Positions 7,893 through 61,961 of a stretch of DNA of 64,000 nucleotides are shown piece by piece; the stretch's first letter is position 1, and each line of letters opens with the position of its first letter. The notes beneath the pieces are model-generated. The model had not been told where the DNA came from. It made no database searches and saw only the letters and a list, made by a program, of their open reading frames with translations. This DNA comes from Minisyncoccia bacterium (GTDB lineage: Bacteria > Patescibacteriota > Minisyncoccia > Moranbacterales > GCA-2747515): contig JBGSQF010000004.1 of NCBI GenBank assembly GCA_041738235.1, positions 6,215 to 70,214 on the forward strand. Direction: 5' to 3'. The position numbers were made by a program, and so were the translations under genes.

Positions 7893-7952
7893 GAAAGATG
7901 CATTTGCGAACCCAGTCCGAACTGCCTGCACTTCCCCGCTCCGCAAATAAAA

Positions 7953-7986
7953 GAAAATTCCCACAAATGGGAATTTTCTTTTATTA
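7953..7986 (+). terminator. rho-independent terminator after the fic gene
   Basis: The hairpin GAAAATTCCCA-caaa-TGGGAATTTTC is followed by TTTTATT. Confidence 0.7.
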
Positions 7987-8046
7987 TAGGAAAACTTCAA
8001 CAAAGGGGGGGTTTTATTTCTCTCAATCTTCGCTATACTAAATACC

Positions 8047-9045: not shown

Positions 9046-9093
9046 TCTGTTCTTCAACAAGATTGACAAACATCCAGTTTCGTGCTTCACTAG

Positions 9094-31171: not shown

Positions 31172-32503
31172 TTACGGCATTGCTATTTTTCCGTCCAACG
31201 TATCCAAAACGGCACGCAATGAACCTTTGCTGGAGGAAATAAGCAATGTATCTCTTCGAAATGTATAATCAAGGGAAAGGTCGTTACCCAGATCTATATT
31301 ATGGTAGCGAACAGCATACTCTCTATAGACTTGATCATTAAAAACCGCTTTTTCGGGATTACTTATAACCTTACCCATATAAATAGGCAAAAGGTCACTC
31401 ACCATCTCTGGCTCAATAGCAAGAAGTCCTGCCAAAGCAGAATCGCGAGAAGTTGTTTCTAATGCAACTGCCACACGCACTTCCGCTCCTTTTTTATCCA
31501 AGTAAACCCTTCCCTCGCCAGTTTCTTTTAAGAGAGCCTTGATAGATTCCGGAAGAGTTATCCCCAATTTATCCACCAACGCTTTACTTGAAACCGTTGT
31601 TAAATTATTGAGATTGTCCACAAAGTAAAATTCCAAAACGCCTTCACCCTTATACAGAGAAAAGTCATTTATCGCTTTTTCAATCTCAGAAAGAGCGCTC
31701 TTTCCACCTTGGTCATCGATAATAATAGTATTGGCAATCTTCCAATCATATTTAAAGGGTACCTCATTGCTTGGAGGAGTGACGGGATTGTTATCCACAA
31801 TAATAGGTAGCTGCTCTGGCGTAACCGGGGGCACCGCTCGACTCTTCCAATAGTAATAGCCTCCCCAAGCAATCAGCCCTATCAGCACGAACACCAGTAC
31901 TACAAAAAATACTTGAAATCCCCTCCCGGGAGATCCTCCTCGAACCGCCTTTTTTGGCATCACATCCAACTCATTCCTCCCAGAGTAATTTTCAACTGGC
32001 AAAGATTTTGGTAGATCATCCCCCAAAGTCGTCATTCCCATGCCATCAATAGACCGCGTAGCTCCATTTTGTACATTTCCCTCAACCTCTTTAATCGATT
32101 CTTTAATGGGGGACCCCACTTGATCGATACTTTCTTTCTGTTCTACAAACACAGGAGTCTCTTTTGAGAAAGCCCCGGTATCAATACCAGCAACATCTTT
32201 TGTGACATTCACAGACTCCTCTGGAGAAACAGCCTGAACATCCCCCTTCAAACCAAAAAAAGGCGAATTCTCAGGAATTTCAACCGCTTCTGGTATAGGA
32301 AGGTCTTGGCCCTGGGAGAGATCGTGTTGAGCAAAGTCTTTTTGAAAAACCCGATTCCCTTCCTTTTTAGAACTGGTGTTTGGAACGATCCCATCATATT
32401 TGGGAGAAGACGGTATGAAAGTTCGGATATTTTTTGGATCAATAACAACGTCGTCCAAATCATTCACGTTCGCATCTTGTATTTTGTTTTGTTTTGCAAA
32501 CAT
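31172..32503 (-). CDS. single-pass membrane protein, unknown function
   Basis: 443 aa. It has a disordered acidic N-terminal half, a TM (GFQVFFVVLVFVLIGLIAWGGYYYW), and a C-terminal ~200-aa ordered extracytoplasmic domain. Confidence 0.5.
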   Translation of the reverse strand: MFAKQNKIQDANVNDLDDVVIDPKNIRTFIPSSPKYDGIVPNTSSKKEGNRVFQKDFAQHDLSQGQDLPIPEAVEIPENSPFFGLKGDVQAVSPEESVNVTKDVAGIDTGAFSKETPVFVEQKESIDQVGSPIKESIKEVEGNVQNGATRSIDGMGMTTLGDDLPKSLPVENYSGRNELDVMPKKAVRGGSPGRGFQVFFVVLVFVLIGLIAWGGYYYWKSRAVPPVTPEQLPIIVDNNPVTPPSNEVPFKYDWKIANTIIIDDQGGKSALSEIEKAINDFSLYKGEGVLEFYFVDNLNNLTTVSSKALVDKLGITLPESIKALLKETGEGRVYLDKKGAEVRVAVALETTSRDSALAGLLAIEPEMVSDLLPIYMGKVISNPEKAVFNDQVYREYAVRYHNIDLGNDLSLDYTFRRDTLLISSSKGSLRAVLDTLDGKIAMP

Positions 32504-32567
32504 AGAAAATTTTTCAATTGATTGTATTGTACACCAATATCAAATGACTCGCAACACAACCCTATTT

Positions 32568-34703
32568 CTATGCAACCTTAGGCACATCTTTCATGGTCAA
32601 ATTTATTCTTCCCTGCTTATCAATTTCCTTTACCTTGACAGAAACCATATCTCCTACATTCACAACATCCTCTACACGTTCCACCCGCCTATCGGAAAGT
32701 TCGGATATGTGAACCAACCCCTCTTGTCCCGGTAAAATCTCCACAAAAGCACCAAAGTTCATAATACGCTTTACTTGTCCCTGAAATACCTCGCCGGCTC
32801 GAACCTCACGGGTAATATTACGTACCCACTCCTCGGCTTTCTTAGCACTTATCTCGTCAGTTGACGTAATAAAAACCAATCCGTCATCTTCAATATCGAT
32901 CTCAACTCCAGTCTCATCAATGATCTGATTTATCACCTTTCCTCCAGGGCCGATGACATCACGTATCTTTTCTGGGTTGATATGGATCGTAATGATCCTC
33001 GGTGCATATGGGGACATCTCCTTTCTCGGTCCAGAAAGCAAAGCCTCGATCATGTCCAAGATCTCCAGGCGGTTTACATGCGATTGTTTTAAGACAGCAG
33101 CTAACATCTCCGTATTTACTCCATCAACCTTTACATCCATCTGCAAAGCCGTCACACCTTCTCGAGTCCCAGCCACCTTGAAGTCCATATCCCCAAAGTG
33201 ATCCTCCAAACCTTGAATATCTGTCAACACCTTAAACGCGGGAGCATTGCTCTCTTTATTCTGTGTGTCAATTATGATTCCCATAGCAATACCGCTCGCA
33301 GGAGCCTTAATAGGAACACCGGCGTCCATAAGAGCCAATGTAGACCCACATACCGACGCCATTGAAGAAGATCCGTTCGATTCCAATACCTCACTCACCA
33401 CTCGAATTGCATAGGGAAAATTCTCCTTTGAAGGAATAAGTGGCTCAATAGCACGCTCTGCGAGCGCTCCATGACCGATCTCTCTTCTGCCTGGTCCACG
33501 CATTGGACGCACTTCACCAACCGAGAAAGCGGGAAAGTTATAATGGTGCATGTACCGCTTCTTGACATCTGTTTCTTCCATCGTATCGATCAACTGCTCC
33601 ATGCCTGGTGCGCCTAGTGTGGCAACGCTTAACACTTGCGTCTCCCCTCGTGTGAACAACCCTGTTCCATGAGTTCTAGGTAGGACTCCTGCCTGACAGT
33701 TAATAGGTCGGAGCTGTGTTAATGTTCTGTGATCTGGACGCAATTCTTGTTCAAGAACGTTTTTGTGAACCAATTCGTCGGCCACTGTATCGATAATGAT
33801 CTCTGCTGCCTCCTTCATCTTACCTCGATTCTCTTCTGGAACACTCTCTTTTACAAAGGTAAAAACGGCATCTCGTATCATTGACAATCTCTCGTATTTT
33901 TTAGCCTTTTCTTCTTGACTATACAAAGCATCTTCATATTCCTTTTCTTCCAATATAGACCGTATGCTCTTCTCAAAATCCTCCTCCCAAGAAACCATGA
34001 TCGGTGTTGCCTTCTCTTTTCCAGCTTCCAAACGAATACCTTCGACAAAATCCACGATCTTCTCGATCGCTTGTTGTCCAAACGCAAATGCCTCTACCAC
34101 TTTTTCCTCAGAAACTTCCTTTGCCCCCGCTTCCACCATGTTTATCTTATTCTTCGTTCCAGATATTGCTAGATCCAAAATACTTTCCTCTCGCTCGCTT
34201 TGTATGGGATTAAGAATAAATCCTTCACCATTCATCCCCACTCGAACAGCTGCAACTGGTCCACTCCACGGAATATCAGAGAGATGAAGCGCCGTAGAGG
34301 CGGCAACGATAGCAACAATATCTGGATCATTTTCTTGGTCAATGGACAGCACGGTCACAACAACCTGCACATCATTTCGCATGCGCATATCAAAGAGCGG
34401 TCGAATTGTTCGATCTACCAAGCGCCCCGTCAATACTGCTTCATCCGTTGGGCGCCCTTCTCGTTTTACAAAACGACTCCCTTTGATCTTGCCAGATGCA
34501 TAAAAACGCTCCTCATAATCCACCATAAGTGGAAAATATCCCGAAACAAAGGAAGCGCCCCTGCTCATCGTTGCAGTTGCCAACACCACTGTATCACCAT
34601 AGCTCACTCTCACCGAACCATTTGCCTGCTTAGCAAGCATTCCCGTTTCAATAACCAGGTCTCTTCCTCCAATTTGGAGCGTCCATTTTTTTACCTCTTG
34701 CAT
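32568..34703 (-). CDS. pnp: polyribonucleotide nucleotidyltransferase (PNPase)
   Basis: It has two RNase PH domains plus KH and S1 (C-terminal EVFQGQVKRIMNFGAFVEILPGQEGLVHISEL). Start trimmed to MQEVKKWTLQIGGRDLVIETG (34703). Confidence 0.95.
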   Translation of the reverse strand: MQEVKKWTLQIGGRDLVIETGMLAKQANGSVRVSYGDTVVLATATMSRGASFVSGYFPLMVDYEERFYASGKIKGSRFVKREGRPTDEAVLTGRLVDRTIRPLFDMRMRNDVQVVVTVLSIDQENDPDIVAIVAASTALHLSDIPWSGPVAAVRVGMNGEGFILNPIQSEREESILDLAISGTKNKINMVEAGAKEVSEEKVVEAFAFGQQAIEKIVDFVEGIRLEAGKEKATPIMVSWEEDFEKSIRSILEEKEYEDALYSQEEKAKKYERLSMIRDAVFTFVKESVPEENRGKMKEAAEIIIDTVADELVHKNVLEQELRPDHRTLTQLRPINCQAGVLPRTHGTGLFTRGETQVLSVATLGAPGMEQLIDTMEETDVKKRYMHHYNFPAFSVGEVRPMRGPGRREIGHGALAERAIEPLIPSKENFPYAIRVVSEVLESNGSSSMASVCGSTLALMDAGVPIKAPASGIAMGIIIDTQNKESNAPAFKVLTDIQGLEDHFGDMDFKVAGTREGVTALQMDVKVDGVNTEMLAAVLKQSHVNRLEILDMIEALLSGPRKEMSPYAPRIITIHINPEKIRDVIGPGGKVINQIIDETGVEIDIEDDGLVFITSTDEISAKKAEEWVRNITREVRAGEVFQGQVKRIMNFGAFVEILPGQEGLVHISELSDRRVERVEDVVNVGDMVSVKVKEIDKQGRINLTMKDVPKVA

Positions 34704-34814
34704 AAAACGCCTTGGTCCTGAGAATACCGTAATATACACGTCTCAGAGCGCAAACAACGATCTGGGATGTGCCTACAACGACACTTCTCAGGGATACTTA
34801 ACAAATAAAAAAAC

Positions 34815-35339
34815 TCACTTCTTCTTGTGAAACTTTCTCTCAGCCACAAGATACTTCGACTTGTCCGCGGAAAGGTCGATAAAATCATCCACCGCCTCAC
34901 GCAACTTTGCACTTGTGGACTCCCCGAAGGCAATTGCCTCCACACGACAACCGGCCGTATTCTGCAAATATTCCACCAAAGGAACATAGTCTCCGTCGCC
35001 CGAGACCAGGACTATAACATCAAGACTTTTTGAGAGTTTAACAGCATCCACTGTAATACCTACGTCCCAATCACCTTTTTTTGCCCCACCGGGGAATATC
35101 TGAAGATCCTTGGTCTTCATCTCGTAACCACTCTTTTCCATAGCCTCAAAGAAGGGTTCTTCAGACCCCTCTTCTGTTTTGATGCCATACGCAATAGCGC
35201 GAATCAACTTTCTCTCGCTTACGGCATCTTCCAATACCTGCTTAAAATTCACTTTTTTCCCATACAAAACACGGGCGCTATAATACAAGTTCTGTATATC
35301 CACCAATACGCCAACGCGTTGTTCTATAAATTTTGCCAT
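34815..35339 (-). CDS. NYN-domain (LabA-like) predicted RNase
   Basis: 174 aa. Motifs: GVLVDIQNLYYS and VLVSGDGDYVPLV (conserved Asp triad of NYN/PIN-like nucleases). Confidence 0.75.
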   Translation of the reverse strand: MAKFIEQRVGVLVDIQNLYYSARVLYGKKVNFKQVLEDAVSERKLIRAIAYGIKTEEGSEEPFFEAMEKSGYEMKTKDLQIFPGGAKKGDWDVGITVDAVKLSKSLDVIVLVSGDGDYVPLVEYLQNTAGCRVEAIAFGESTSAKLREAVDDFIDLSADKSKYLVAERKFHKKK

Positions 35340-35381
35340 ACTTTGTTTTCAAAAACAGAAAAACCTTTCAACAAGATAGCT

Positions 35382-35651
35382 CTATTTCTTCAAACCAAGC
35401 TTCTTGATCACCTTCTTATACGTCTTTTCATCTGTCTTTTCAAGATAGGTAAGCATTCTTCGTCTCTTTGAGACCATCCCCAATAAACCCCGTCTTGAGT
35501 GATTATCATTCTTGTTCTTTTTGAGATGAAGTGTCAACCTTCGAATCTCCTCAGTAAAAAGACCGATCTGATATTCCGGGGATCCAGTATCAGAATCGTG
35601 TCTCTGAAATGTCTTTGTAACCTTCTTCTTTTGCGCAGTTGAGAGTGCCAT
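35382..35651 (-). CDS. rpsO: 30S ribosomal protein S15
   Basis: 89 aa. Motifs: GSPEYQIGLFTEEIRRLTLHLKKNKNDNHSRRGLLGMVSKRRRMLTYL. Confidence 0.9.
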   Translation of the reverse strand: MALSTAQKKKVTKTFQRHDSDTGSPEYQIGLFTEEIRRLTLHLKKNKNDNHSRRGLLGMVSKRRRMLTYLEKTDEKTYKKVIKKLGLKK

Positions 35652-35764
35652 AAGTGGTACTTCAGCAAAGTATGCGTTCTGCCAATCAGCAAACCCACAC
35701 CCGCTATACTCTAAAAATTAATACCCTCACAATAACAGACTATTCCTTATATTGCAAGCAGACT

Positions 35765-38224
35765 CTACAATATCGTTGCAGCAGAAAGCTGATCCTTTGT
35801 TTTTGGTCGCATAATACGCACACCTTGAGTAGCCCGCCCCAACAAAGGCACGCTTTTAAGAGGAATACGAATAACCTGTCCCCTCTCAGTAATGACGATC
35901 ATGTCTTCTTGCTGCGTTTCATCAGTGCTTACCAGCTTCGCCCAGACGAGATCCCCAGTTTTCGGCGTTACTTTGGCCGTCTTTATCCCTGAGCCTCCAC
36001 GATTTTGCACTTTATAGAACTTAAGTGCCGATCGCTTACCATATCCATTTTGGGCGAGAGCTAAAAGCTCAATTCCCTTCTGTCCTTTGGCAACAACGTC
36101 CATACCCACCAAAATATCATCTTTTTTCATCCGTATTCCCCATACTCCAGCGGCCGTTCTTCCCATAGATCGAACATTGGACTCTTTAAATCGTATAGAT
36201 TGACCTTTTTTGGTCACTAAAACTATCTCATCGCTTCCTACCGTCGGCTTTACCCAACCTAAAGAGTCTTTTTCATCCAACTTTATAGCAAATAAACCAC
36301 TCCTTCGTACTTTGAGAAACTCCTCGATCTTTGTCTTTTTGACCACGCCCTGGGTTGTCGCCATACAGAGAAATTTGTAATCGTCGTCCTTATTAAAAGC
36401 AATGATCTCCGTTATCTTCTCTTCGGGGGCGAGCTGTAGAAAATTCACCGCGCTATTCCCCTTTGATGTTCGAGTTGACTCTGGTATCTCATAAGCCTTC
36501 AACTGAAAAACCTTCCCAAAATTAGTAAAGAAGAGAAGATCATCGTGCGTCATAACGGCACGAAACAACATGACCACATCATCTTCACGAGTGCTTGCAC
36601 CAATAACACCCTTCCCCCCTCGTTTTTGTACCCGATACGCTGAAGGATTCATCCTCTTTATATAACCCCCTCGCGTGAGAGATATCACCGCCTCTTCGTT
36701 GGGAATCACATCTTCCTGTCGAAACGTGCCCACCTCAGACAAAACGACTGCTGTTTTTCTTCCATTTCCATACTTCTTCTTCATCTCCTGCAACTCTGAC
36801 TTAATAAGCGCCAGCATCTTATCCTTGTGCCGAAGAAGATCTTGCAAAAATGCAATGATCTTCTTTTTCTCCGCCAATTCATCCTCAATTTTTCTTCGCT
36901 CAAGCCCGGCAAGTGTCTGAAGGCGCATTTCCAAAATAGCAGTCGCTTGTATGTCCGAGAATTTGAACTTATCACGCAAATTCTTGTGAGCTGTTTCCTT
37001 TGTTTGTGATCGCTTAATGGTCTCGATCACCTCATTGATGTGATCCAATGCTTTCGAAAGACCTTCAAGTATATGAGCGCGTTCTTTCGCTTTTCGAAGA
37101 TCGTACTCGGCTCGTCGTCTTACAACCTCGACACGATGTGCCACATAATACTCCAACATAGCCTTAAGATTGAGCACTTGGGGCTCGATCCCATCGACCA
37201 ATGCCAACATATTTACATTGAAGTTCTTTTGTAGGTCCGTAGTGGCATATAACTTGTTGAGCACCTTCTGTGGATAAGCATCTTTTTTGAGTTCTATTAC
37301 GACACGCACACCATCTTTATCCGATTCATCACGAAGATCTCGTATACCTTGTACCTTTCCATCACGAACCAAACATGCGATCTTTTCCAACATATCCGCC
37401 TTATTGGTGGCATACGTCATTTCTGTCACAATAATATGAAATACTCCCTCTTTTACCTCAATAATATCCGCCTTTGCCCGTGTCACGATCTTTCCGCGCC
37501 CAGTAGCATACGCCTCACGAATATCCTTCTTATTAAAAATGATCCCACCTGTAGGAAAATCAGGTCCCTTCACATATTTTAAAAGATCATCGACCGTAGC
37601 ATCAGGATGATCGATAAGGTACGATATCCCCTCCACCAACTCTTCCAGGTTGTGTGGTGGTATGTTCGTCGCCATTCCAACCGCAATTCCCACCGTTCCA
37701 TTCAGGAGTAACTGAGGGAGTTTTGATGGGAGCACCGTTGGCTCCTTGTGAACACCATCAAAATTCGGCACAAAATCTACCGTTTCCTTGTCGATATCAA
37801 GAAGCATTTCTTCCGCTATAGGACGCAATTTTGCCTCAGTATAACGATATGCCGCAGCGCTATCGCCATCCATAGAACCAAAGTTTCCCTGCCCCCAAAC
37901 AAGTGGATATCGCAAAGAAAAATCCTGTGCCATTCTCACCATGGAATCATACACAGCAACATCACCATGTGGGTGATACTTTCCCAATACTTCTCCGACT
38001 ACCGTAGCCGACTTTCGAAATTTTGCCGTTGATCGAAGTCCACTCCCCCACATTGCGTACAATATCCTACGGTGTACCGGCTTAAGACCGTCACGAACGT
38101 CCGGCAAAGCGCGAGACACGATCACGCTCATCGCATAGTCAAGATACGACTGTTGAATTTCCTCTGTAATAGCGCGATCACGAATAATTCCACCCATTTC
38201 TTGTTTCTGCTCCATATTGATCAA
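35765..38224 (-). CDS. gyrA: DNA gyrase subunit A
   Basis: 819 aa. Motifs: [14 protein letters not shown], the active-site region [11 protein letters not shown], the QRDR YHPHGD, and the GyrA-box QKRGGKG in the C-terminal beta-pinwheel (this argues for GyrA over ParC). Confidence 0.9.
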
Positions 38225-38241
38225 CTGTCAAACAATTATTT

Positions 38242-38514
38242 TTATACTCCCGGAACCGATTGCGACTGAGAACCATTATTCATGAGAGAATCTTTTTGAT
38301 CTTTTAATTCTTTTACCGCATTATCGAATGAATTGTTATTTGTAGCGTTCTGCATAAGCGGACTCTCCTTAATGTGCTCAAAATTCTGCTTTAAGGAAAC
38401 AAACCAAACCACAAAAACAAAGATCATGGAAATGACCACACAGCCAATAACATAACGCATGCGAATGTGTTCCGGCTGTTTTTTAATCTCTTCCAATTTT
38501 TCTTGAATGCTCAT
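38242..38514 (-). CDS. small membrane protein, unknown function
   Basis: 90 aa with one TM (YVIGCVVISMIFVFVVWFV). It is tightly packed between gyrA and the MBL-fold gene. Confidence 0.4.
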   Translation of the reverse strand: MSIQEKLEEIKKQPEHIRMRYVIGCVVISMIFVFVVWFVSLKQNFEHIKESPLMQNATNNNSFDNAVKELKDQKDSLMNNGSQSQSVPGV

Positions 38515-38523
38515 AATGCCTAT

Positions 38524-39162
38524 TTATCTCTGCGAAGTAAGCAAGACCACTTCCATCCCCTTTTCCGAAATATCCTTCTTTTTACACACAAGCTTATCGG
38601 TTGGTTTTAATGAATCAGCACCCATTTCACTCAAAAACTTTTTTACATCCTCTAGTTCGTAAGGAATTCCTGGGATCTTATACATCATCGGGATCACAAT
38701 CTTTGGCTCTACCTTTCGAACGATCTCAGCTGCAGTTTTTGCATCCATAAACTTATTTCCTCCCACGGGAACAAATAAGATATCTATCTCTTCAAAAAGC
38801 TCCAACTGTTTTTCTCCCAATGCTTTGTGAGCCCTCCCGAGATGCCCCACTCGAATATCCTCGCTCTCAAATATAAAGGGAATATTCACACCCTCCCCAT
38901 TCGATGCATGAACACCAAAAACATTGATACCTTGAACCGCATATTCCCCAGGGAGATCAAAGATCTTCGTGTCTCCCTTAAACATTTCTGTGGAACAGTT
39001 ATTTTCACCCTGCGAACAAAGTATTATATCCCCCTTTCCATATACTGATCGAACTCCTTTCTCATTTAAGGGATCTATGTACAAAACAACATCTTCCGTC
39101 GCTCGTCCACCAGGCTTTGTCAAAAACCGAAAACAGCTCAATCCATAATACGATATTTGCAT
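38524..39162 (-). CDS. MBL-fold metallo-hydrolase
   Basis: 212 aa. It has a metallo-beta-lactamase-like His/Asp pattern (GHLGRAH, DILFVPVGG). The substrate is unknown. Confidence 0.65.
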   Translation of the reverse strand: MQISYYGLSCFRFLTKPGGRATEDVVLYIDPLNEKGVRSVYGKGDIILCSQGENNCSTEMFKGDTKIFDLPGEYAVQGINVFGVHASNGEGVNIPFIFESEDIRVGHLGRAHKALGEKQLELFEEIDILFVPVGGNKFMDAKTAAEIVRKVEPKIVIPMMYKIPGIPYELEDVKKFLSEMGADSLKPTDKLVCKKKDISEKGMEVVLLTSQR

Positions 39163-39351
39163 ACAGAAAGTAGTAAATTTTATTTACTCAATACTATCAT
39201 AGACGATCCTTTTTTTCAAGACTCCCAGCATTCTTTTCTCAAACACCCCCCTACCCAAACGATGCCCTTTTTACCTAGTAACAAAGGTTGCCAAAAAACA
39301 AATAGCACGATATAATACATTTGTCAATATTACAGAGTTTGTATCCCCTCT

Positions 39352-39367
39352 TGTTCCACGTGGAACA
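39352..39367. promoter_or_regulatory. parS: parS site 1
   Basis: TGTTCCACGTGGAACA, perfect palindrome. Confidence 0.85.
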
Positions 39368-39433
39368 TAAGAAAAATGATCTAAACATCACCCCTAGAAA
39401 TATTTCTTGTACCTATAAACAAAGATCTCCTAA

Positions 39434-39449
39434 ATGTTCCACGTGAAAC
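39434..39449. promoter_or_regulatory. parS: parS site 2 (B. subtilis-type variant)
   Basis: TGTTCCACGTGAAACA. Confidence 0.85.
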
Positions 39450-39547
39450 ATTTATACACCCCACAAAAAAAGTACTCTCTAGCAAGATCATCATTAGTTG
39501 AAAAACAAAAAAATCTCCAGAAGCTTAGGAGGAAAAACTTTCTTTTA

Positions 39548-39563
39548 TGTTCCACGTGGAACA
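39548..39563. promoter_or_regulatory. parS: parS site 3
   Basis: TTTTATGTTCCACGTGGAACATAAAA is a 26-bp palindrome. Confidence 0.85.
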
Positions 39564-39716
39564 TAAAAGAAAGAGATTCTATAAAAAACACTCACAAACA
39601 GCTATTAAAAAAAGTAACCTTGCAAACTCACACCAAAAGATAATATGCGACAAAAAATCCTTTTGGTTATATAAAAATGGTAAAAAATAGCTAGATCTTG
39701 TAAAAAGGGACCCAAC

Positions 39717-39732
39717 TGTTCCACGTGGAACA
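39717..39732. promoter_or_regulatory. parS: parS site 4
   Basis: TGTTCCACGTGGAACA. Confidence 0.85.
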
Positions 39733-39826
39733 TAAAAAATGACGAAAAAAAACTTAAAGGAAAGACTCTTTGTAAGAGAGCCCACTAAGAGTGTTTTAGC
39801 CCAACAACGTAAACCAGCGATAGCTA

Positions 39827-39842
39827 TGTTCCACGTGGAACA
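39827..39842. promoter_or_regulatory. parS: parS site 5
   Basis: ATGTTCCACGTGGAACAT. Confidence 0.85.
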
Positions 39843-39993
39843 TAAAAAACCTAAAAACCAGACTTTGATGATCCATTGCTCTTACTTAAGATTTTTACCC
39901 AATTACAACAAACACACATAACCCAATAATTAACACTTCGCAAATAGTACCATCCTAGAAATCTTATAAAGATACCTTAATAGAAAAGATACA

Positions 39994-40009
39994 TGTTCCA
40001 CGTGGAACA
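39994..40009. promoter_or_regulatory. parS: parS site 6
   Basis: It is embedded in the 28-bp perfect palindrome GATACATGTTCCACGTGGAACATGTATC. Confidence 0.85.
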
Positions 40010-40106
40010 TGTATCTGTATTATAGCGAAGGTACTAGCGACACACTACTTAAAAATCGATTCTCAATAAAGATTCACCCTAGATCAAAGATTGTTAACAG
40101 TCTATT

Positions 40107-40122
40107 TGTTCCACGTGGAACA
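40107..40122. promoter_or_regulatory. parS: parS site 7
   Basis: TGTTCCACGTGGAACA. Confidence 0.85.
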
Positions 40123-40163
40123 ACGAATACAAAGGGTTGACCAAAAAAATATAAAATTCAACA

Positions 40164-40179
40164 TGTTCCACGTGGAACA
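40164..40179. promoter_or_regulatory. parS: parS site 8
   Basis: ATGTTCCACGTGGAACA. Confidence 0.85.
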
Positions 40180-40298
40180 CTATAGCAATGAGAGACAAGA
40201 AGCACATCTATTACACAACATTATTTTAACAATTTGTCAATACTTCTTGACTCTTTATCTTCTATTCGGTATTATTTGCTGGCGTTCCCTTGTGTAAT

Positions 40299-40371
40299 GG
40301 GCCGTTAGCTCATCTGGTAGAGCGCATCCATGGCATGGATGAGGTGAGCGGTTCGAGTCCGCTACGGTCCA
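40299..40371 (+). tRNA. tRNA-Ala (anticodon GGC)
   Basis: GGGCCGTTAGCTCATCTGGTAGAGC; the anticodon stem-loop is CATCC-ATGGCAT-GGATG. The G3.U70 wobble pair in the acceptor stem is the Ala identity element, the discriminator is A73, and the T-loop is TTCGAGT. Confidence 0.8.
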
Positions 40372-40474
40372 CTCAATAAAAAATAGTCAGACGACCCCAA
40401 AAGAGAGCACGGGTATTTCAGTTAACTTTCCCTTTAATAAAAAGTTTTTTCGGTTTTTCCACACATTATACACC

Positions 40475-40546
40475 GCCCCGATAGTTCAATGGATAGAACG
40501 GCTCACTCCTAACGAGCAAATTCAGGTTCGACTCCTGGTCGGGGCA
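40475..40546 (+). tRNA. tRNA-Arg (anticodon CCT)
   Basis: The acceptor stem is GCCCCGA/TCGGGGC. The anticodon loop CTCCTAA matches E. coli tRNA-Arg(CCU). The T-arm is TCAGG-TTCGACT-CCTGG. Confidence 0.75.
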
Positions 40547-40559
40547 CTAAGTCCATCCT

Positions 40560-40898
40560 ATGCCAAAACGAATTGATAAAATAAATCCACTCATACAGGA
40601 TATTTTATCCAAGCTTATAGCAAAAGAAATTTCCTTAAAGCCAGCCGTGTTCATAACAGTTGCAAAAGTTGACACATCAAGAGATCTCCGGTATGCTCGA
40701 GTGTTTGTGAGCGTCTTTCCAGACACTGAAAGGGATTATGCGTTTCAAACCATACTACATGAGCGATCTAAACTGCAAAAATTACTCCATCAAGAATTAT
40801 CTACCAAAATACTCCCAAAAATCTCCTTTATTTTAGATGAAACAGAGTCTCGAGCAGATGAGATCGAACGCCTCTTTCAGGAAATAAAGGAAGAATAA
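40560..40898 (+). CDS. rbfA: ribosome-binding factor A
   Basis: 112 aa; RbfA KH-like signature. Confidence 0.85.
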   Translation: MPKRIDKINPLIQDILSKLIAKEISLKPAVFITVAKVDTSRDLRYARVFVSVFPDTERDYAFQTILHERSKLQKLLHQELSTKILPKISFILDETESRADEIERLFQEIKEE

Positions 40899-40913: not shown

Positions 40914-41876
40914 ATGAAAAAGTTTATACAAGAATTTTCTTCACTCAACTACGTTCTCAAAAATTCTGACTCCACACTTCTTATTGCACACAACAATCCT
41001 GATGCTGATAGCGTTGGTGCAACGATTGCTCTTCAAGAAATCCTTTTATTGCAAGGAAAGAAGGTGGACATTGTATGCAATGATCCTTTTCCAATAACAT
41101 TGAGCTCCGTTGTTACGACAAATTTCATATCTCCAAAAGAACTCCTTCTAGAGAAATACGATGCTGTTATTGCTTGTGATAGCGTAGACAGGGGACCCTT
41201 CCGAGAAATTCAAAAGAACCTCTCTGAAAAACAGGTAACGGTTCTTATAGATCACCATCCAGATATTGCCGTAACTGCGGATATCGTTCTTATTGACGCA
41301 AAACGATCCTCAACCTGCGAGCTACTCTACGAGTTTTTTTTCAAACAAAAGATCTCGATCAATACAAGAATGGCCACTGCACTTCTTCTGGGTCTTTTGT
41401 TCGACACTGGAAACTTTCAACATCCCTGTACATCTACCCGCGTTCTTGAAATAGCCTCGGATCTTCTTAAAAGAGGAGCCCCTCTGCAAAAGATAATTCA
41501 AGTCGTTTCTTCAAATAAAAAAATATCTACTCTACACCTTTGGGGAAAAGCCTTTGATAAGATGAAGGTTGTGAAAGAGACTGGGATGGCAGTCACCGGA
41601 CTCACAAAAGACGATCTGGATGAATGTGGCTCAGAACAACAGGAAACCTCACAAATAGCCCAGATACTTTCTACCATACCAGGTATTCGTTACGGACTTG
41701 TGCTTTATCAAAAGGATAAAGATACGGTCCGAGGAAGTTTTCGAGCCCAAGAATCTGCCGATGTTGATGTCTGCGCGCTAGCAAAAAAACTTGGGGGTGG
41801 GGGACACGTACTTGCCAGCGGCTTTGAAATACCCGGTCTTCTTCAAGAAAAGGGGGGTAATTGGGTTATTGAATAA
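40914..41876 (+). CDS. nrnA: DHH/DHHA1 phosphoesterase, NrnA-like nanoRNase/pAp phosphatase
   Basis: 320 aa. Motifs: HNNPDADSVGA (DHH motif I/II), DHH at LIDHHPD, and the DHHA1 GGGH at KKLGGGGHVLASG. Confidence 0.8.
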   Translation: MKKFIQEFSSLNYVLKNSDSTLLIAHNNPDADSVGATIALQEILLLQGKKVDIVCNDPFPITLSSVVTTNFISPKELLLEKYDAVIACDSVDRGPFREIQKNLSEKQVTVLIDHHPDIAVTADIVLIDAKRSSTCELLYEFFFKQKISINTRMATALLLGLLFDTGNFQHPCTSTRVLEIASDLLKRGAPLQKIIQVVSSNKKISTLHLWGKAFDKMKVVKETGMAVTGLTKDDLDECGSEQQETSQIAQILSTIPGIRYGLVLYQKDKDTVRGSFRAQESADVDVCALAKKLGGGGHVLASGFEIPGLLQEKGGNWVIE

Positions 41877-41917: not shown

Positions 41918-42508
41918 ATGCAAAATACAACAAATATCTCATTCAAAACCCTTTCCCAAAAAATTTCTACTTGCAAAAAGTGTATACTGAGATCATCGTG
42001 CTCGCAGGTTGTAGTCGGTTCAGGGTCAGAAAGATCAGAAATACTCTTCATAGGAGAAGCACCTGGAAAAAAAGAGGACGAAATTGGAATGCCCTTTGTG
42101 GGAGCCTCTGGAAAACTCCTCCAGGAAATGCTTGCTTCAATTGGAATGAACCGAGAATCTGTCTACATCACTAATATCGTAAAATGTCGCCCCCCTAACA
42201 ATCGAGATCCTCTTCCAGAGGAGATCGCTCTCTGCACACCGTGGCTTACTGCACAAATTGAACGAATGGATCCAAAGCTCATTATAACCCTAGGACGTCA
42301 CTCAATGAACTTCTTTCTTCCAGAATTGAAGATCTCAACCTCTCACGGACACATCTATCGGGCACAACCCACATCCTTTACAAAACCTTTTGTTTTTTTC
42401 ACATTGTATCATCCTGCAGCAGCCCTCTATAATGGAGGACTAAGAGACTCGCTTTTCAAAGATTTTTCTAAAATCCCAAAAATACTCAAAGAAATAAAAA
42501 AGAATTGA
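41918..42508 (+). CDS. uracil-DNA glycosylase, family 4
   Basis: 196 aa. Motifs: the Cys cluster CKKCILRSSC, GEAPGKKEDEIGMPFVGASGKLL, and HPAAALYN. Confidence 0.8.
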   Translation: MQNTTNISFKTLSQKISTCKKCILRSSCSQVVVGSGSERSEILFIGEAPGKKEDEIGMPFVGASGKLLQEMLASIGMNRESVYITNIVKCRPPNNRDPLPEEIALCTPWLTAQIERMDPKLIITLGRHSMNFFLPELKISTSHGHIYRAQPTSFTKPFVFFTLYHPAAALYNGGLRDSLFKDFSKIPKILKEIKKN

Positions 42509-51818: not shown

Positions 51819-53630
51819 ATGTTTTTTAAGAAAAAAACCAACGATCAAAAAATACCCAAAGATCCTATTATGGCGAGCCACGCAGACTATGAAGCCGGTA
51901 TGGAAACGGTACGAAGCTTCATTGCCCCCTCAGCTATAGAATTTTCTCCAAACTACGTGCAAATAGGGGAGGTGTTTTCCAGAACACTCTTTGTGACCGC
52001 TTATCCAAAATACCTCAGCACAGGCTGGTTCTCTCCGATCATCAATATCGACTTTTCTATGGACATTGCGATGTTCGCAAGTCCTATGGAAACGACCGAG
52101 GTTCTCAAAAAACTTCGAGACTCAGCGGCACAGCTTAACTCACAGATACGAATCGAGCAAGAATCGGGACAAGTACGAGACCCCGTCAAAGAGTCAGCCC
52201 TCGAAAACGTTGAGCGTCTCCGCGATGGACTTCAGGAAGGAACAGAGCGCTTCTTTCGTTTTGGTCTCTATATCACTCTCTATGGAAAGACCAAAGAAGA
52301 ACTTGATGAGATCACAAGGAAACTTGACGCCATATTGGAAGCCCAGATGGTCTACGTAAAACCGACCGTCCTTCGCATGAACCAGGGATTTTCGTCAACG
52401 CTGCCTCTCGGAAACGATGAACTCAACCTCTGCAATAACCTTAATACCACACCGCTTTCCACCACATTTCCCTTTATTTCCTCAGAACTTTCTTCCAATG
52501 AAGGAATTTTGTACGGCATAAACCGACACAATAATAGTTTGGTCCTTTTTGACCGTTTCAACCTGGAAAATGCGAATATGACCATATTCGCCAAATCTGG
52601 AGCGGGAAAAAGCTATGCCGTCAAACTAGAACTTCTCCGATCTATGATGCTCGGCACGAATATCTGCATCATCGACCCGGAAAACGAATATAAACACCTT
52701 TGCGAGGCCGTAGGAGGAAGTTTTATCTCCATCTCCCTTAACTCCAGAAGTCATATCAATCCATTCGATCTCCCTAAAATAAGCGACGAGACCGACCCTG
52801 CCGACATGTTTCGAAGCCATATCGCTACACTCATTGGCCTCCTTCACCTTATGTTAGGCCGTGTGACGCCTGAGGAAGATTCGATCCTTGACCGAGCTAT
52901 ACGTGAAACATACGCCATACGAGACATAACCCCAGAATCCAACCTCAAAGCCATTGGTACCGAACAAGTCCCAACCATAACCGACCTATACAATGTTTTA
53001 CAAAACATCGAAGGAGCAGAGTCCCTCTCAGCAAGACTTGAGAAGTTTACCGAAGGGGTTTTTTCTGGGTTTCTCAATCACCCCACAAACGTAAGTTTTG
53101 AAAATCAAATGATCGTTTTTAATATCCGCGACCTTGAAGAGGAGTTAAGACCGATCGCTATGTATGCCGTTTTGCAGATCATCTGGAATGCGATGCGATC
53201 AGAGCTCAAAAAACGCCTTTTGGTCGTAGACGAAGCATGGGTCATGATGCAAAATGAGGACGCTGCCTCATTTCTCTATGGGATAGCCAAACGCTGTCGA
53301 AAATATTACACAGGCCTCACCACTATCACCCAGGATATTTCCGACTTTATGAACTCTCGCTATGGAAAGCCGATCGTCAACAACTCTTCCCTCCAGATAC
53401 TTCTCAAACAATCCCCCTCATCGGTAAATGTCATTGCGGATACCTTTTATCTCACAGATCAAGAAAAATTTTTGCTCTTGGAGTGCAATGTGGGAGAGGG
53501 AATATTCTTTGCTGGAGCCAAACATGTGGCCATAAAAGTCATTGCTTCTTATTCCGAAGATCAGATCATCACCTCAGATCCAAGACAGCTTCTCGAGATC
53601 GAAGAGGCCAAAAAAGAGCTTGAGGGATAG
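51819..53630 (+). CDS. VirB4/TrbE/CagE-family secretion ATPase (C-terminal ATPase part)
   Basis: 603 aa. It has Walker A IFAKSGAGKSYAVK and Walker B LLVVDEAWVMM. The total with the preceding ORF (833 aa) matches the length of full-length VirB4. Confidence 0.85.
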   Translation: MFFKKKTNDQKIPKDPIMASHADYEAGMETVRSFIAPSAIEFSPNYVQIGEVFSRTLFVTAYPKYLSTGWFSPIINIDFSMDIAMFASPMETTEVLKKLRDSAAQLNSQIRIEQESGQVRDPVKESALENVERLRDGLQEGTERFFRFGLYITLYGKTKEELDEITRKLDAILEAQMVYVKPTVLRMNQGFSSTLPLGNDELNLCNNLNTTPLSTTFPFISSELSSNEGILYGINRHNNSLVLFDRFNLENANMTIFAKSGAGKSYAVKLELLRSMMLGTNICIIDPENEYKHLCEAVGGSFISISLNSRSHINPFDLPKISDETDPADMFRSHIATLIGLLHLMLGRVTPEEDSILDRAIRETYAIRDITPESNLKAIGTEQVPTITDLYNVLQNIEGAESLSARLEKFTEGVFSGFLNHPTNVSFENQMIVFNIRDLEEELRPIAMYAVLQIIWNAMRSELKKRLLVVDEAWVMMQNEDAASFLYGIAKRCRKYYTGLTTITQDISDFMNSRYGKPIVNNSSLQILLKQSPSSVNVIADTFYLTDQEKFLLLECNVGEGIFFAGAKHVAIKVIASYSEDQIITSDPRQLLEIEEAKKELEG

Positions 53631-58906: not shown

Positions 58907-60031
58907 ATGAAAAAATCTTTCCTATTTTTTTCCATACTATTGGCTGTGTTTTTTGTTCCCTCATCCACCTTCGGTTTAGGAAATACAACAACCTGTCAAA
59001 CTACCCTCAGCTACTATAGAGCGTGTGTCTATGGTGGCACAGCCTGTTCAACTGGTTGGACAGAATCCTCTCTCGCCTGTTCAAACAATACCGCTGGAGA
59101 AACTGGAAAATGTTGTGAAAAAAGCACACAAACAACTTCCACCGGAAACCCAAGCTCTACAACCACATCTACCTCCGCTTCCTTCACTTACACTCCCCTT
59201 GAAGAGATCCCGGGACAAGGAACTACAAGTGACCTTTCTTCCTACATAAAGGGACTCTATTCTTTTAGTATCTTCTCTGTGGGAATAGCAGCCCTTCTTA
59301 TGGTGATCATAGGTGGGTTTATCTACGTAACGGCAGCAGGGAACACCTCGAATGTAGACAAAGGGAAGGAATATATAAAAGATGCCTTTTTTGGAATACT
59401 TATAGCCTTCGGATCGTATCTTATATTGTACGTCATCAATCCAGATCTAGTGAATGTCGATCTGAGCAGCTTAAGCAAGTTAGCAATGGTAGGGGGAAGT
59501 GGATCATCCTACACTGAACAAAGTACCCCCGTTAAGGGATCCGGAAATGGTACATGCGACCCGGTGCCAAGCGGATCTTGCTCTGTAGAGTCACTTAAAA
59601 GCACCTGTCTCGCATCAAATGCAGAGGCGTTTTCTCGCCTATGTAACAAGGAAAGTGCGGGCGCAGTAAACTCCTCAAGTGGAGTTGATATCTGCTCCAA
59701 TTATGGAAATGCGAGTTTTTCTGGAGGACTCTTCCAAATCAATGTTTTTTCAAATGGAAGCATGCTTGGGGACTCCCGCTGTAATAATTTGGGAAGCAAA
59801 GGCACCTGCGCCAACAGAAGAGCAAGTGACGGAGTATGTCTTGGTTGGAACTGCCAATTAACTGCTGGAAATGCTAATGACCTCAATTATTGTATGGGTC
59901 TCACAAAAACAGCAGATAAAAATATTTCTGTAGCCTGTCAACTCTCCGGAAACGGCGTCAACACAACCCCCTGGGCGTGCAGCGCCAACAAATGCGGACT
60001 CGGCGGCACATCAAGCTCTTTCTGTAAGTAA
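58907..60031 (+). CDS. secreted Cys-rich protein containing a VirB2/TrbC-pilin-like two-helix hairpin (paralog 1)
   Basis: 374 aa. It has a signal peptide, a Cys-rich N-domain and a T/S linker. The hairpin follows: LYSFSIFSVGIAALLMVIIGGFIYV (TM1) - TAAGNTSNVDKGKEYIKDA (short loop) - FFGILIAFGSYLILYVI (TM2). A Cys-rich C-terminal domain of about 190 aa follows. Confidence 0.6.
   Translation: MKKSFLFFSILLAVFFVPSSTFGLGNTTTCQTTLSYYRACVYGGTACSTGWTESSLACSNNTAGETGKCCEKSTQTTSTGNPSSTTTSTSASFTYTPLEEIPGQGTTSDLSSYIKGLYSFSIFSVGIAALLMVIIGGFIYVTAAGNTSNVDKGKEYIKDAFFGILIAFGSYLILYVINPDLVNVDLSSLSKLAMVGGSGSSYTEQSTPVKGSGNGTCDPVPSGSCSVESLKSTCLASNAEAFSRLCNKESAGAVNSSSGVDICSNYGNASFSGGLFQINVFSNGSMLGDSRCNNLGSKGTCANRRASDGVCLGWNCQLTAGNANDLNYCMGLTKTADKNISVACQLSGNGVNTTPWACSANKCGLGGTSSSFCK
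59163..59480. repeat. ~320-bp near-identical direct repeat, copy A (pilin-like hairpin-coding segment)
   Basis: It matches 61111..61430 at about 85-90% identity, including a 58-nt identical run CCACATCTACCTCCGCTTCCTTCACTTACACTCCCCTTGAAGAGATCCCGGGACAAGG. Confidence 0.85.
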
Positions 60032-60049: not shown

Positions 60050-60532
60050 ATGTCTTTTTTCAAAAAAACCCTTCTTTTTACAGCACTTTTTCTTATTATC
60101 TTTGGAGTTATTGCATACCTCTTTCTCAAAAAGACCTCCCCATCAAACACAACCCCAAAACAAACAGAGGAAACAATACAACTTAATAAACAAATAGAGT
60201 CTACCGTCCTTCCAGAAGCCCAACTGATTGACAAAGGCACTTACCTCATACAGGAAGGGAAACAAGAAGCCAATTCTCCAAATCCAGATTATTCGATATA
60301 CTATTTTCAAGAAACAGGACAATATAGTATCGTTCTTCTCAAAACCCCCCTCGAAGAAACTAGAAAAGAAGCGGAAGAAGCTTTCCTAAAACAGGTCGCG
60401 GCATCCGGCGTTACAAAACAAGATGCATGCAAACTCTTTGTCACCGTTCAAACCATAGCAAGTGTCGACGAGATAAACTCTGGAAGAAATTTTGGACTCA
60501 GTTTTTGCCCAAATGCCAAAAACTTCGATTAG
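60050..60532 (+). CDS. small N-terminally anchored secreted protein, unknown function
   Basis: 160 aa with an N-terminal TM (LLFTALFLIIFGVIAYLFL) and no motif. Confidence 0.45.
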   Translation: MSFFKKTLLFTALFLIIFGVIAYLFLKKTSPSNTTPKQTEETIQLNKQIESTVLPEAQLIDKGTYLIQEGKQEANSPNPDYSIYYFQETGQYSIVLLKTPLEETRKEAEEAFLKQVAASGVTKQDACKLFVTVQTIASVDEINSGRNFGLSFCPNAKNFD

Positions 60533-60644
60533 TAAAGGGCCTTTTAAAAAATTCTTCTCTGCTCTATTCGTCAAAATCCTTTGTTTTGTTACAATATTAA
60601 CCAGCTATAGCCAACTAAAAGATCCTTCTTTAAATACCCTTTTG

Positions 60645-60659
60645 TGCTATACTAGTATC
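60645..60659 (+). promoter_or_regulatory. extended -10 / palindromic TATACTAGTAT element upstream of pilin-like paralog 2
   Basis: TGcTATACT is at 60645..60653, and the palindromic core ATACTAGTAT is shared with the 30525 palindrome. Confidence 0.45.
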
Positions 60660-60689
60660 ATTAATAAAATATATTTTATTTATCCTTCC

Positions 60690-61961
60690 ATGACCAAGAG
60701 CCTACTTCCAAGAAAGATGTTCCTCCTCTTTTTTATTTTCTCCTGTTTCGTTTTTCTGCCAAGTCTGTGTCATGGGGTCGTGGAAACGCCAGTTCCCTCA
60801 GTGGACTGTGAGAATCCTTCAATTTGGGGAGGAAGTTGCGGAGGAGTATGCGGACAAGGACGAAAATCAGTAGGAGTATGTACTGGAAATTTAACCGGTG
60901 GCTGGTGCTGCGTCACAAGCGAGCAATACGATAAACTTGCAGAACAAGGAAAGGTACCCAAAGAAACGCCAACATCAACAGGAACCGATGAGTGCCAAAA
61001 GAACGGGGGAACTTGTAGCCAAAGCTGTTCCGGTATAGGGGCCGCTTACGGAAATTGCGAAAACGGACCGCCGGTTGTGTATTGTTGCCAAAAAAATAGC
61101 ACGTCTACATCCACATCTACCTCCGCTTCCTTCACTTACACTCCCCTTGAAGAGATCCCGGGACAAGGCATAACAACCGACCTTTCCTCGTATATAAAAG
61201 GGCTCTACTCCTTTGCAATATTCTCTGTAGGGATAGCAGCCCTTCTCATGGTGATCATAGGTGGGTTTATCTACGTAACGGCGGCAGGGAATACCTCAAA
61301 TGTAGATAAAGGGAAAGGATATATTCGCGATGCTCTTATTGGGATACTTATCGCCTTTGGATCCTACCTCATCCTCTACGTGATCAACCCGGACCTGGTA
61401 AATATTGATCTGAGCAACTTAAATAAGCTCTCTCTTTCCGGAGGAGTGGGCTCCACTGGATCGACCGGATCAGGAACGGGCGGTTCAGGAAGTGCAACCT
61501 CAAACCCAGGAACCTGCGGGGGTATAAAGGTCCAATCAGGAACGGCAGGATGTTCACTAGCCTCAGGTGATCTTGGTGGAATGCTCTCCTGCATGGTGGG
61601 GAAGGGAATAAATAACTACTCCGGATACGTCTACTCCGTCACTTCCAATGCCACCGGAGATAACAAAGAGGCTTCTGCTGCTTGCTGCGGAAACGGACAC
61701 TCTGCAAAATGCCCTCATAGTAATACAAGTTGTCATCACGGATGTACAATGTCAGACAAGGGAAGCTCTTACTCGGTTGACTATTTGACCACCAGCCTTT
61801 CAGACACACAGATCTGCGAAGTAGTAGATATTGCCATAGCTTGCGGCGCAACTACCAGTGGAAATATCTGGGGACCCAAAACCATGTGTAACGGAAAGGT
61901 CCATTACGCAAGTGGCCATGGCAACCACCTCCACATCCCTACGAGTAGCTGTGGTCACTAA
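60690..61961 (+). CDS. secreted Cys-rich protein containing a VirB2/TrbC-pilin-like two-helix hairpin (paralog 2)
   Basis: The start was trimmed to ATG 60690 (MTKSLLPRKMFLLFFIFSCFVFLPSLCHG, a signal peptide); the track starts at 60492. It has the same SASFTYTPLEEIPGQG...LYSFAIFSVGIAALLMVIIGGFIYVTAAGNTSNVDKGKGYIRDALIGILIAFGSYLILYVINPDLVN block as paralog 1. The Cys-rich N- and C-domains differ. Confidence 0.6.
   Translation: MTKSLLPRKMFLLFFIFSCFVFLPSLCHGVVETPVPSVDCENPSIWGGSCGGVCGQGRKSVGVCTGNLTGGWCCVTSEQYDKLAEQGKVPKETPTSTGTDECQKNGGTCSQSCSGIGAAYGNCENGPPVVYCCQKNSTSTSTSTSASFTYTPLEEIPGQGITTDLSSYIKGLYSFAIFSVGIAALLMVIIGGFIYVTAAGNTSNVDKGKGYIRDALIGILIAFGSYLILYVINPDLVNIDLSNLNKLSLSGGVGSTGSTGSGTGGSGSATSNPGTCGGIKVQSGTAGCSLASGDLGGMLSCMVGKGINNYSGYVYSVTSNATGDNKEASAACCGNGHSAKCPHSNTSCHHGCTMSDKGSSYSVDYLTTSLSDTQICEVVDIAIACGATTSGNIWGPKTMCNGKVHYASGHGNHLHIPTSSCGH
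61111..61430. repeat. ~320-bp near-identical direct repeat, copy B
   Basis: See copy A (59163..59480). The two copies are 1948 bp apart in direct orientation. Confidence 0.85.

Follow-up and report, generated by a model that had tools for sequence, protein, structure and literature searches.

What kind of element is formed by the short palindromes that crowd the gap between a metallo-β-lactamase (MBL)-fold hydrolase gene and tRNA-Ala in a Minisyncoccia bacterium (contig JBGSQF010000004.1, assembly GCA_041738235.1), and which protein would read them? We analyzed a 64-kb stretch of this contig, referred to here as the window, that contains the whole cluster. We propose, with a probability of roughly 80%, that the palindromes are the chromosomal centromere of a Moranbacteria-like member of the Patescibacteria, or candidate phyla radiation (CPR), and serve as a loading array for a canonical ParB/Spo0J-type protein. 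That the sites are ParB/Spo0J-type parS elements forming one concentrated, centromere-like array is well supported by their sequence and its conservation.

Searching the window for TGTTCCACGTGGAACA with up to two mismatches returns exactly eight matches, all within 39352-40179, and no copy in the rest of the 64 kb. Dinucleotide-preserving shuffles average 0.02 matches, and in 100 of them a count of eight never occurs. Seven sites are perfect and the eighth, TGTTCCACGTGAAACA, departs from them at a single base. The first-pass annotation, which had described eight parS palindromes (seven perfect and one variant) in 830 bp of non-coding DNA, is upheld on these counts; seven of its eight coordinates are right, and the start that it placed at 39434 is in fact 39435. 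It had equated this variant with the published consensus of B. subtilis/Spo0J.

parS 1: 39352-39367, no strand; perfect TGTTCCACGTGGAACA, also present in the independent assemblies L001 and L002
parS 2: 39435-39450, no strand; TGTTCCACGTGAAACA, one mismatch, also present in L001 and L002
parS 3: 39548-39563, no strand; perfect, centre of a 36-bp perfect palindrome (39538-39573)
parS 4: 39717-39732, no strand; perfect
parS 5: 39827-39842, no strand; perfect, within a 20-bp palindrome (39825-39844)
parS 6: 39994-40009, no strand; perfect, centre of a 30-bp perfect palindrome (39987-40016)
parS 7: 40107-40122, no strand; perfect, within an 18-bp palindrome (40106-40123)
parS 8: 40164-40179, no strand; perfect, 120 bp upstream of tRNA-Ala

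The perfect palindromes around the seven perfect sites measure, in order, 16, 36, 16, 20, 30, 18, and 16 bp, the one-mismatch site at 39435 being left out of this series; an earlier estimate of 18-28 bp was roughly right, with the two longest exceeding it. Both of these fold strongly, that of parS 3 giving a hairpin of -15 kcal/mol (z = -6.9) as single-stranded DNA, and three palindromes of the array are flagged as terminator-like on the minus strand. Start-to-start spacings of 83, 113, 169, 110, 167, 113, and 57 bp confirm the irregular 57-169-bp arrangement reported before, at a mean density of one site per 104 bp. The 25-bp flanks of the copies are 61-73% alike in an A-rich background, and the shared unit is a core of only 16-18 bp. 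Across 157 perfect sites from the window and its CPR-like relatives, the sole conserved context is AAW-core-WTT; judged by this conservation, the effective element in CPR is probably about 22 bp, AAW-TGTTCCACGTGGAACA-WTT. Upstream of these 157 sites the three flanking positions are A (69%), A (84%), and A/T (98%), with the mirror image downstream.

The left part of the array is confirmed by two independent short-read assemblies, L001, which is 100% identical to window positions 31270-39567, and L002, which is 100% identical to 33986-39567. Both end at 39567, just past parS 3 and inside the 36-bp palindrome. Short-read contigs repeatedly end within parS arrays, at 39567 in the window and at the starts or ends of L005, L033, L049, and L094. 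The arrays evidently break short-read assemblies, and metagenome-assembled genomes (MAGs) may under-report them as a consequence.

The perfect 16-mer matches, base for base, the parS that has been validated by experiment in Pseudomonas aeruginosa and Pseudomonas putida (PMC4368675; PMC7022226 Table 1). All eight window sites, the seven perfect copies and the variant alike, conform to the 16-bp parS consensus tGTTNCACGTGAAACa; for whole-genome scanning the pattern is written TGTTNCACGTGNAACA. We sampled the taxonomic spread of dense arrays through metagenomes, scanning contigs for three perfect copies separated by gaps of 18-48 bp (within about 130 bp), which gave at least 120 loci. In these loci parA, parB, and dnaA were called by tblastn with B. 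subtilis Spo0J, Soj, and DnaA and then with profiles built from the matches (50 ParB and 54 ParA sequences of the fetched loci). The 120 loci listed span GC contents of 0.28 to 0.71. About 62 of them have parA and/or parB on the fetched stretch that holds the cluster, often as its immediate neighbors, and 13 have dnaA. The presence of parAB and dnaA beside tight clusters ties the exact motif to ParABS across many uncultured bacteria; together with the Pseudomonas match and the conservation of the core alone, it bears out the parS identity first read from the letters. Viral contigs present a different picture: 19 have a close parS pair, with 2-3 sites each, and none of these 19 carries a large array.

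Comparison with related genomes, a check proposed in the first-pass annotation, shows that the array is conserved, with one per locus at the same position. Two genome loci (L005 and L009) and many metagenome loci encode a GyrA 60-70% identical to that of the window amid the same neighbor genes, and each of these GyrA-related relatives has a single dense array of 5-18 perfect sites. Across 16 CPR-like loci totalling about 295 kb, parS occurs in 13 loci as 150 sites, grouped into one array of at most 1.6 kb per locus, with no dispersed copies. The position beside tRNA-Ala/tRNA-Arg is kept in at least 15 loci, and wherever a CPR-like locus extends to this side, tRNA-Ala(GGC) has the array or its host gene directly upstream, facing away from the tRNA. 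In the relatives this tRNA is usually followed by tRNA-Arg(CCT) and then by rbfA, a DHH-family gene, and a uracil-DNA glycosylase (UDG) gene. The window gap itself is syntenic with L047, L094, L132, L135, L136, L149, L152, and L154-L157.

In most relatives, all sites lie within one long open reading frame (ORF) of 550-715 aa. The arrays listed below are in frame inside this ORF and hold 8-18 perfect or one-mismatch sites each.

L005:149-1359, array in frame inside the ORF
L009:278-1106, array in frame inside the ORF
L047:2508-3963, array in frame inside the ORF
L132:8035-9265, array in frame inside the ORF
L135:343-1821, array in frame inside the ORF
L136:2123-3699, array in frame inside the ORF
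L149:10357-11548, array in frame inside the ORF
L152:10255-11485, array in frame inside the ORF
L154-L157, arrays in frame inside the ORF

The host ORF belongs to the O-antigen-ligase (WaaL/Wzy_C-type) family of membrane proteins. It matches Pfam Wzy_C (L132 scores 40.6 bits against a cut-off of 31.7), and an AlphaFold model of the protein, with a predicted template modelling score (pTM) of 0.81, finds its best solved-structure match in the WaaL O-antigen ligase 7tpg_B (E = 3.4e-5). With the L047 ORF as query, 411 homologous proteins were retrieved at E <= 1e-5. The best 120 of these all contain 1-18 parS-encoded peptides (FHVE[HQ], VPRGT, or CSTWN, the readings of parS in its three frames), and their source names are Moranbacteria, Moraniibacteriota, Parcubacteria, Minisyncoccota, and Patescibacteria. 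In the model, 15 of 17 parS peptides fall in four segments with a predicted local distance difference test score (pLDDT) below 50, between confident transmembrane helices; in the alignment they are variable loop insertions, with decayed versions in homologues that have few sites. Among neighboring sites no more than 70 bp apart in the 16 coding arrays, the spacing modulo 3 is 1 in 66 cases, 2 in 35, and 0 in a single case. Spacings in coding arrays vary in steps of three, a reading-frame constraint that is absent from the two non-coding arrays (those of the window and of L113). The near-absence of same-frame neighbors may stem from shared ancestry or from selection. A gene-embedded, parAB-unlinked centromere array anchored at tRNA-Ala, as the relatives present it, appears to be undescribed in the searchable literature.

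Gene-internal parS clusters also occur outside the CPR. Five metagenome clusters (L045:5085-5376, L134:2896-3006, L125:5461-5617, L071:1389-1488, and L104:3634-3733) lie within or before gidA/mnmG-like ORFs, and another (L073:7145-7283) lies at the 5' end of an 851-aa ORF, possibly gyrB, that follows recF. Each has 3-6 perfect parS on a non-CPR contig, which indicates that in-frame parS clusters are not confined to the CPR.

The window and L113 are the exceptions among the relatives, with the array in the same position and no ORF around it. In L113 a 1.19-kb non-coding gap (7880-9066) contains 16 perfect sites within 812 bp (8113-8924). Its flanks are unchanged, with TSP3-repeat genes on one side and tRNA-Ala, tRNA-Arg, rbfA, DHH, and UDG on the other, and the locus looks like a loss of the host ORF in place, without rearrangement. 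The window retains the right flank of its relatives, whereas their left block (TSP3 genes, FtsH, TilS, and guanylate kinase) is found at 10-17 kb, its place beside the array taken by the MBL hydrolase gene and gyrA; judged from this gene order, a rearrangement probably brought the MBL hydrolase gene beside the array. We searched the gap for a decayed Wzy pseudogene and rejected this candidate: a hidden Markov model (HMM) of the family, run on the six-frame translation, gave weak matches of similar size in all six frames because of the parS-encoded peptides, and no single frame stood out as a relic of the Wzy protein. Since the coding state is far more widely distributed, the change is inferred to have run from coding to non-coding.

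The loss of the frame bears directly on what is conserved. With the host frame erased and seven of eight sites perfect in the window, and with the same outcome in L113, selection appears to act on the DNA sites and not on the protein. Only the core is conserved, and sites persist where the host ORF is lost, as expected for selection on a binding site independent of its surroundings. The sequence pattern in the window argues against neutral decay, with which it would be hard to reconcile.

By analogy with characterized ParABS systems (PMC7022226, PMC7053999, PMC8367383), a ParB dimer would bind each 16-bp palindrome through its helix-turn-helix domain. Upon binding cytidine triphosphate (CTP), the dimer would close into a clamp, leave parS, and slide onto neighboring DNA. 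Having eight such sites in 830 bp would multiply the rate at which clamps load and produce one compact, mutation-tolerant ParB zone that could mark the chromosome for segregation and/or SMC loading. The ancestral array would have been located inside a WaaL/Wzy_C-type gene, whose frame the window seems to have lost together with a local rearrangement, keeping only the parS sites. The reader of the sites is likely to be a canonical ParB, because the canonical site is exactly conserved.

Three results weigh against a ParB-loaded centromere at this locus. No ParA or ParB is encoded in the 64-kb window, as the first-pass annotation had noted and as motif, tblastn, profile, and Pfam searches agree, and the CPR-like loci examined likewise have neither within about 10 kb of their arrays. 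In the searchable literature we found no relevant link of ParB or parS to Patescibacteria, CPR, Parcubacteria, Saccharibacteria, or Moranbacteria. Finally, the origin proximity that is typical of chromosomal parS is without support here, with neither a skew switch nor dnaA in the window. Related searches gave similar results: searches of the window found no DnaA or SMC, the ParBc, ParA, and DnaA families are absent within 10 kb of the host gene in seven contexts from six genomes, and none of the parAB-carrying metagenome loci listed is CPR-like.

These linkage data are also what speaks for the first alternative, in which a ParB-family paralogue or an orphan ParB with a non-segregation role reads the sites. 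Such a reader could be a nucleoid-occlusion factor of the Noc kind, or a CTP-dependent clamp resembling KorB or VirB whose role is to silence or regulate the neighboring tRNA and rbfA genes. parAB is unlinked to the array in all CPR-like loci, the array adjoins a tRNA-Ala promoter-like site in every relative, and ParBs encoded as orphans, away from parAB operons, are reportedly common and spread widely across taxa (PMC12704722). We nevertheless consider such a reader unlikely, as clusters of the same 16-mer stand beside parAB in other bacteria and the occurrence of one array per locus is centromere-like rather than operator-like. Moreover, the sites are exact canonical parS, whereas known paralogues use diverged sites, the Noc site being ATTTCCCGGGAAAT.

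A second alternative views the array as a functionless fossil, the decaying remainder of a parS-bearing WaaL/Wzy gene in a genome whose working centromere lies elsewhere. The host reading frame is clearly lost in the window, and its eight sites compare with 9-18 in most relatives. Neutral decay, however, would not spare the palindromes alone: the sequence between sites is no longer recognizable, yet seven sites are perfect and the eighth is one base off, and L113 reached the same outcome with 16 perfect sites and no ORF. We regard a fossil as improbable.

Still less probable is a dispersed palindromic repeat of the miniature inverted-repeat transposable element (MITE) or repetitive extragenic palindromic (REP) type, or an array acting at the RNA level, whether through transcript hairpins and terminators or as an array like those of clustered regularly interspaced short palindromic repeats (CRISPR) or tandem interspaced guide RNAs (TIGR). 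The hairpin-capable and terminator-like palindromes described above would suit such an element, as would a promoter-like site that points into the array, and TIGR arrays do occur in CPR (PMC12045711). The motif, however, is canonical parS, its spacing is irregular, and neither the window nor the CPR-like DNA surveyed has copies beyond the arrays. We rejected a MITE/REP-like element or longer repeat unit because conservation extends over 16-18 bp only and no copies lie outside the array. A CRISPR or TIGR array was rejected on the irregular spacing and on the absence of cas and tas families from the window in the Pfam survey, with TIGR features taken from PMC12045711. tRNAs are the only Rfam matches.

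Weakest of all, with a likelihood close to nil, is the idea that the array is part of a replication origin or another replication element, which would fit the AT-rich gap, the switch of gene orientation at the array (almost all genes minus at 17.9-39.2 kb and plus at 40.3-61.9 kb), and the location of dnaA 0.3-2.2 kb from the array in the relatives L033, L074, and L126, but not the GC skew, which has the same sign on both sides, or the lack of DnaA boxes in the array and of dnaA in the window.

Bulk skew is negative throughout the window. To the left and to the right of the array alike, genes on either strand have a third-codon-position skew, expressed on the plus strand, of -0.21 to -0.50. 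Without a change of sign, the switch in gene orientation is not an origin signature. We therefore rejected oriC at the array, which contains no perfect or one-mismatch DnaA box, in a window where tblastn and profile searches find no dnaA. If the leading strand is G-rich, as is the rule, the skew places the origin to the right of the window and no less than 24 kb away. The earlier suggestion that the window is origin-proximal finds no support in this analysis; the accompanying remark that the array lacks DnaA boxes holds, also at one mismatch. The close spacing of array and dnaA in L033, L074, and L126 suggests that origin proximity may hold for the lineage as a whole. Over the full 64 kb, TTATCCACA DnaA boxes number six perfect copies, and 30 at up to one mismatch against 16 ± 3.8 expected. 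DnaA-box-like 9-mers cluster on the plus strand at 31558-31799 (31558, 31569, and 31614 with one mismatch each, and 31791 perfect), inside a 443-aa ORF (31172-32503) that has no Pfam match.

How does a ParB-loading centromere of this form compare with known ones? The first-pass annotation had called eight sites in under 1 kb plasmid-centromere-like, in contrast to the single sites scattered over tens of kb that are normal for chromosomes. The concentrated, centromere-like character stands. The density is not without precedent, given 22 sites in 3 kb in Myxococcus xanthus and up to 27 in 1.9 kb in the metagenome loci.

The F-plasmid centromere sopC is a regular 43-bp tandem repeat beside sopAB. 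It shares with the window many ParB-family palindromes within less than 1 kb, which nucleate one partition complex in F, and differs in that the window array has irregular spacing, unrelated flanks, and a chromosomal housekeeping context. A plasmid-type, sopC-like tandem centromere was rejected on these grounds, the context comprising gyrA, pnp, rpsO, tRNAs, and ftsH. In B. subtilis, single parS sites are scattered over a large ori domain, and some lie inside genes, such as spo0J, and still work. The sites of the CPR relatives are likewise inside an ORF and translated there, but 5-18 of them are packed into the loops of one WaaL-like gene, a gene that the window has lost.

In M. xanthus, the 22 parS, with the consensus TGTTCCACGTGGAACG, form a cluster of 3 kb that is separated from parA by 4 kb, on its upstream side, and from oriC by 35 kb; ParB binds this cluster in vitro (PMC3899335). 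Both arrays are dense, chromosomal, and built of near-identical parS, at comparable densities of about one site per 140 bp in M. xanthus and one per 104 bp in the window; unlike that of M. xanthus, the window array is unlinked to parAB, stands beside tRNA genes, and descends from a gene-embedded array. P. aeruginosa has four parS near oriC with a 50-kb ParB chromatin immunoprecipitation peak around them (PMC4368675; PMC7022226). The window shares with P. aeruginosa and P. putida the identical 16-bp palindrome and the grouping of several sites on a chromosome, and it departs from P. aeruginosa in carrying eight sites in 0.83 kb, flanked on both sides by 24-39 kb free of dnaA and parAB.

Among the metagenome loci, the following arrays illustrate the range of density and periodicity, and the strictly periodic tandem arrays on some of these contigs resemble F sopC.

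L056:27-1886, 27 parS in 1.86 kb
L082:12230-13979, 23 parS repeating about every 44 bp and flanking soj, with dnaA 3 kb away
L101 and L139, 16 parS in 1.55 kb beside parAB
L067:4603-5526, 13 parS with a 55-bp period, beside parAB
L120:4-724, parS tandem with a 63-bp period
L063:2834-3350, parS tandem with a 61-bp period

Dense chromosomal parS arrays are already known, and what is new here is one in a CPR bacterium. We found no treatment of chromosome segregation or parS in CPR/Patescibacteria in the searchable literature, and our data would extend the canonical system to reduced-genome bacteria that keep one compact, many-site parS centromere at a conserved position, unlinked to parAB. The gene-embedded, lineage-wide arrangement is a more interesting lead than the window's own array. 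It raises the questions of how ParB loads alongside transcription and translation of the gene and of why small genomes concentrate their loading sites. Comparing translated with gene-less arrays offers clear evidence from nature that it is the DNA sites that selection preserves.

In a large part of the Patescibacteria the array is built in frame into a WaaL/Wzy-type gene, with its sites in four disordered loops of the protein, and the sequence evidence for this is solid. A bolder reading is that the placement serves a function and is not incidental. We hold such a function to be doubtful, with the odds clearly against it. If it were true, one could speculate that co-translational membrane insertion tethers the ParB-coated centromere to the membrane in cells whose ParB is unlinked or orphan or, alternatively, that ParB loading is coupled to expression of the host gene. 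The window would then represent a natural experiment in which a centromere has outlived its host gene.

The whole array sits in a 1136-bp gap whose longest ORF is 69 aa. With a GC content of 0.37-0.38 against about 0.44 for the window, and with the annotated neighbors, this matches the AT-rich gap between an MBL-hydrolase gene and tRNA-Ala described at first pass. The immediate surroundings are as follows.

39163-40298, no strand: non-coding gap that, by synteny, takes the place of the relatives' parS-bearing WaaL/Wzy_C-type gene
38524-39162, minus: MBL-fold hydrolase gene, left flank of the gap (Pfam Lactamase_B_3)
38242-38514: small ORF of 90 aa between the MBL hydrolase gene and gyrA, no Pfam match
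39288-39316, plus: sigma-70-like promoter-like site into the array, TTGCCA-17-TATAAT, 11/12 matches
40247-40275, plus: promoter-like site before tRNA-Ala, TTGACT-17-TATTAT, a consensus match only
40299-40372, plus: tRNA-Ala(GGC), right neighbor of the array
40475-40547, plus: tRNA-Arg(CCT), second of the conserved tRNA pair
40560-40898: rbfA, after tRNA-Arg(CCT)
40914-41876: DHH-family gene, after rbfA
41918-42508: UDG gene, after the DHH-family gene

The MBL hydrolase gene, the 90-aa ORF, and gyrA form a trio that is conserved in relatives; the middle ORF is kept in every relative examined, at 90-123 aa. The promoter-like site at 39288-39316 has no ORF behind it and could drive a transcript through all eight palindromes towards tRNA-Ala. 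The closest genomes listed by match to the MBL protein are Candidatus Moraniibacteriota/Patescibacteria MAGs, at about 45-47% identity.

The gene content of the window is that of a typical small CPR chromosome. A first group of Pfam matches comprises ribonucleotide reductase, superoxide dismutase (SOD), peroxiredoxin, lactate/malate dehydrogenase, pseudouridine synthase, ribosomal protein L19, guanylate kinase, a TilS-like PP-loop protein, and FtsH, and a second a Xer-type recombinase, UvrD, UbiA, KsgA, Ddl, ComM, PNPase, ribosomal protein S15, GyrA, and the MBL hydrolase. gyrA, rpsO, and pnp are adjacent, in agreement with the neighbors named at first pass. To the right of the array follow the two tRNAs, RbfA, the DHH-family protein, UDG, a type IV secretion-like cluster, and two Wzy_C genes. 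Pfam assigns no family to much of 46-58 kb. The adjacent Wzy_C (O-antigen ligase) genes, at 61939-63108 and 63092-63913 on the minus strand, contain no parS and are distant paralogues only of the parS-bearing family. From 40300 to 61961, some 20 kb of nearly all plus-strand genes lie on the lagging strand by GC skew. The type IV secretion-like cluster includes a VirB4/TraG P-loop ATPase (51819-53630) and proteins resembling pilins of type IV secretion systems (T4SS; 58907-60031 and 60492-61961).

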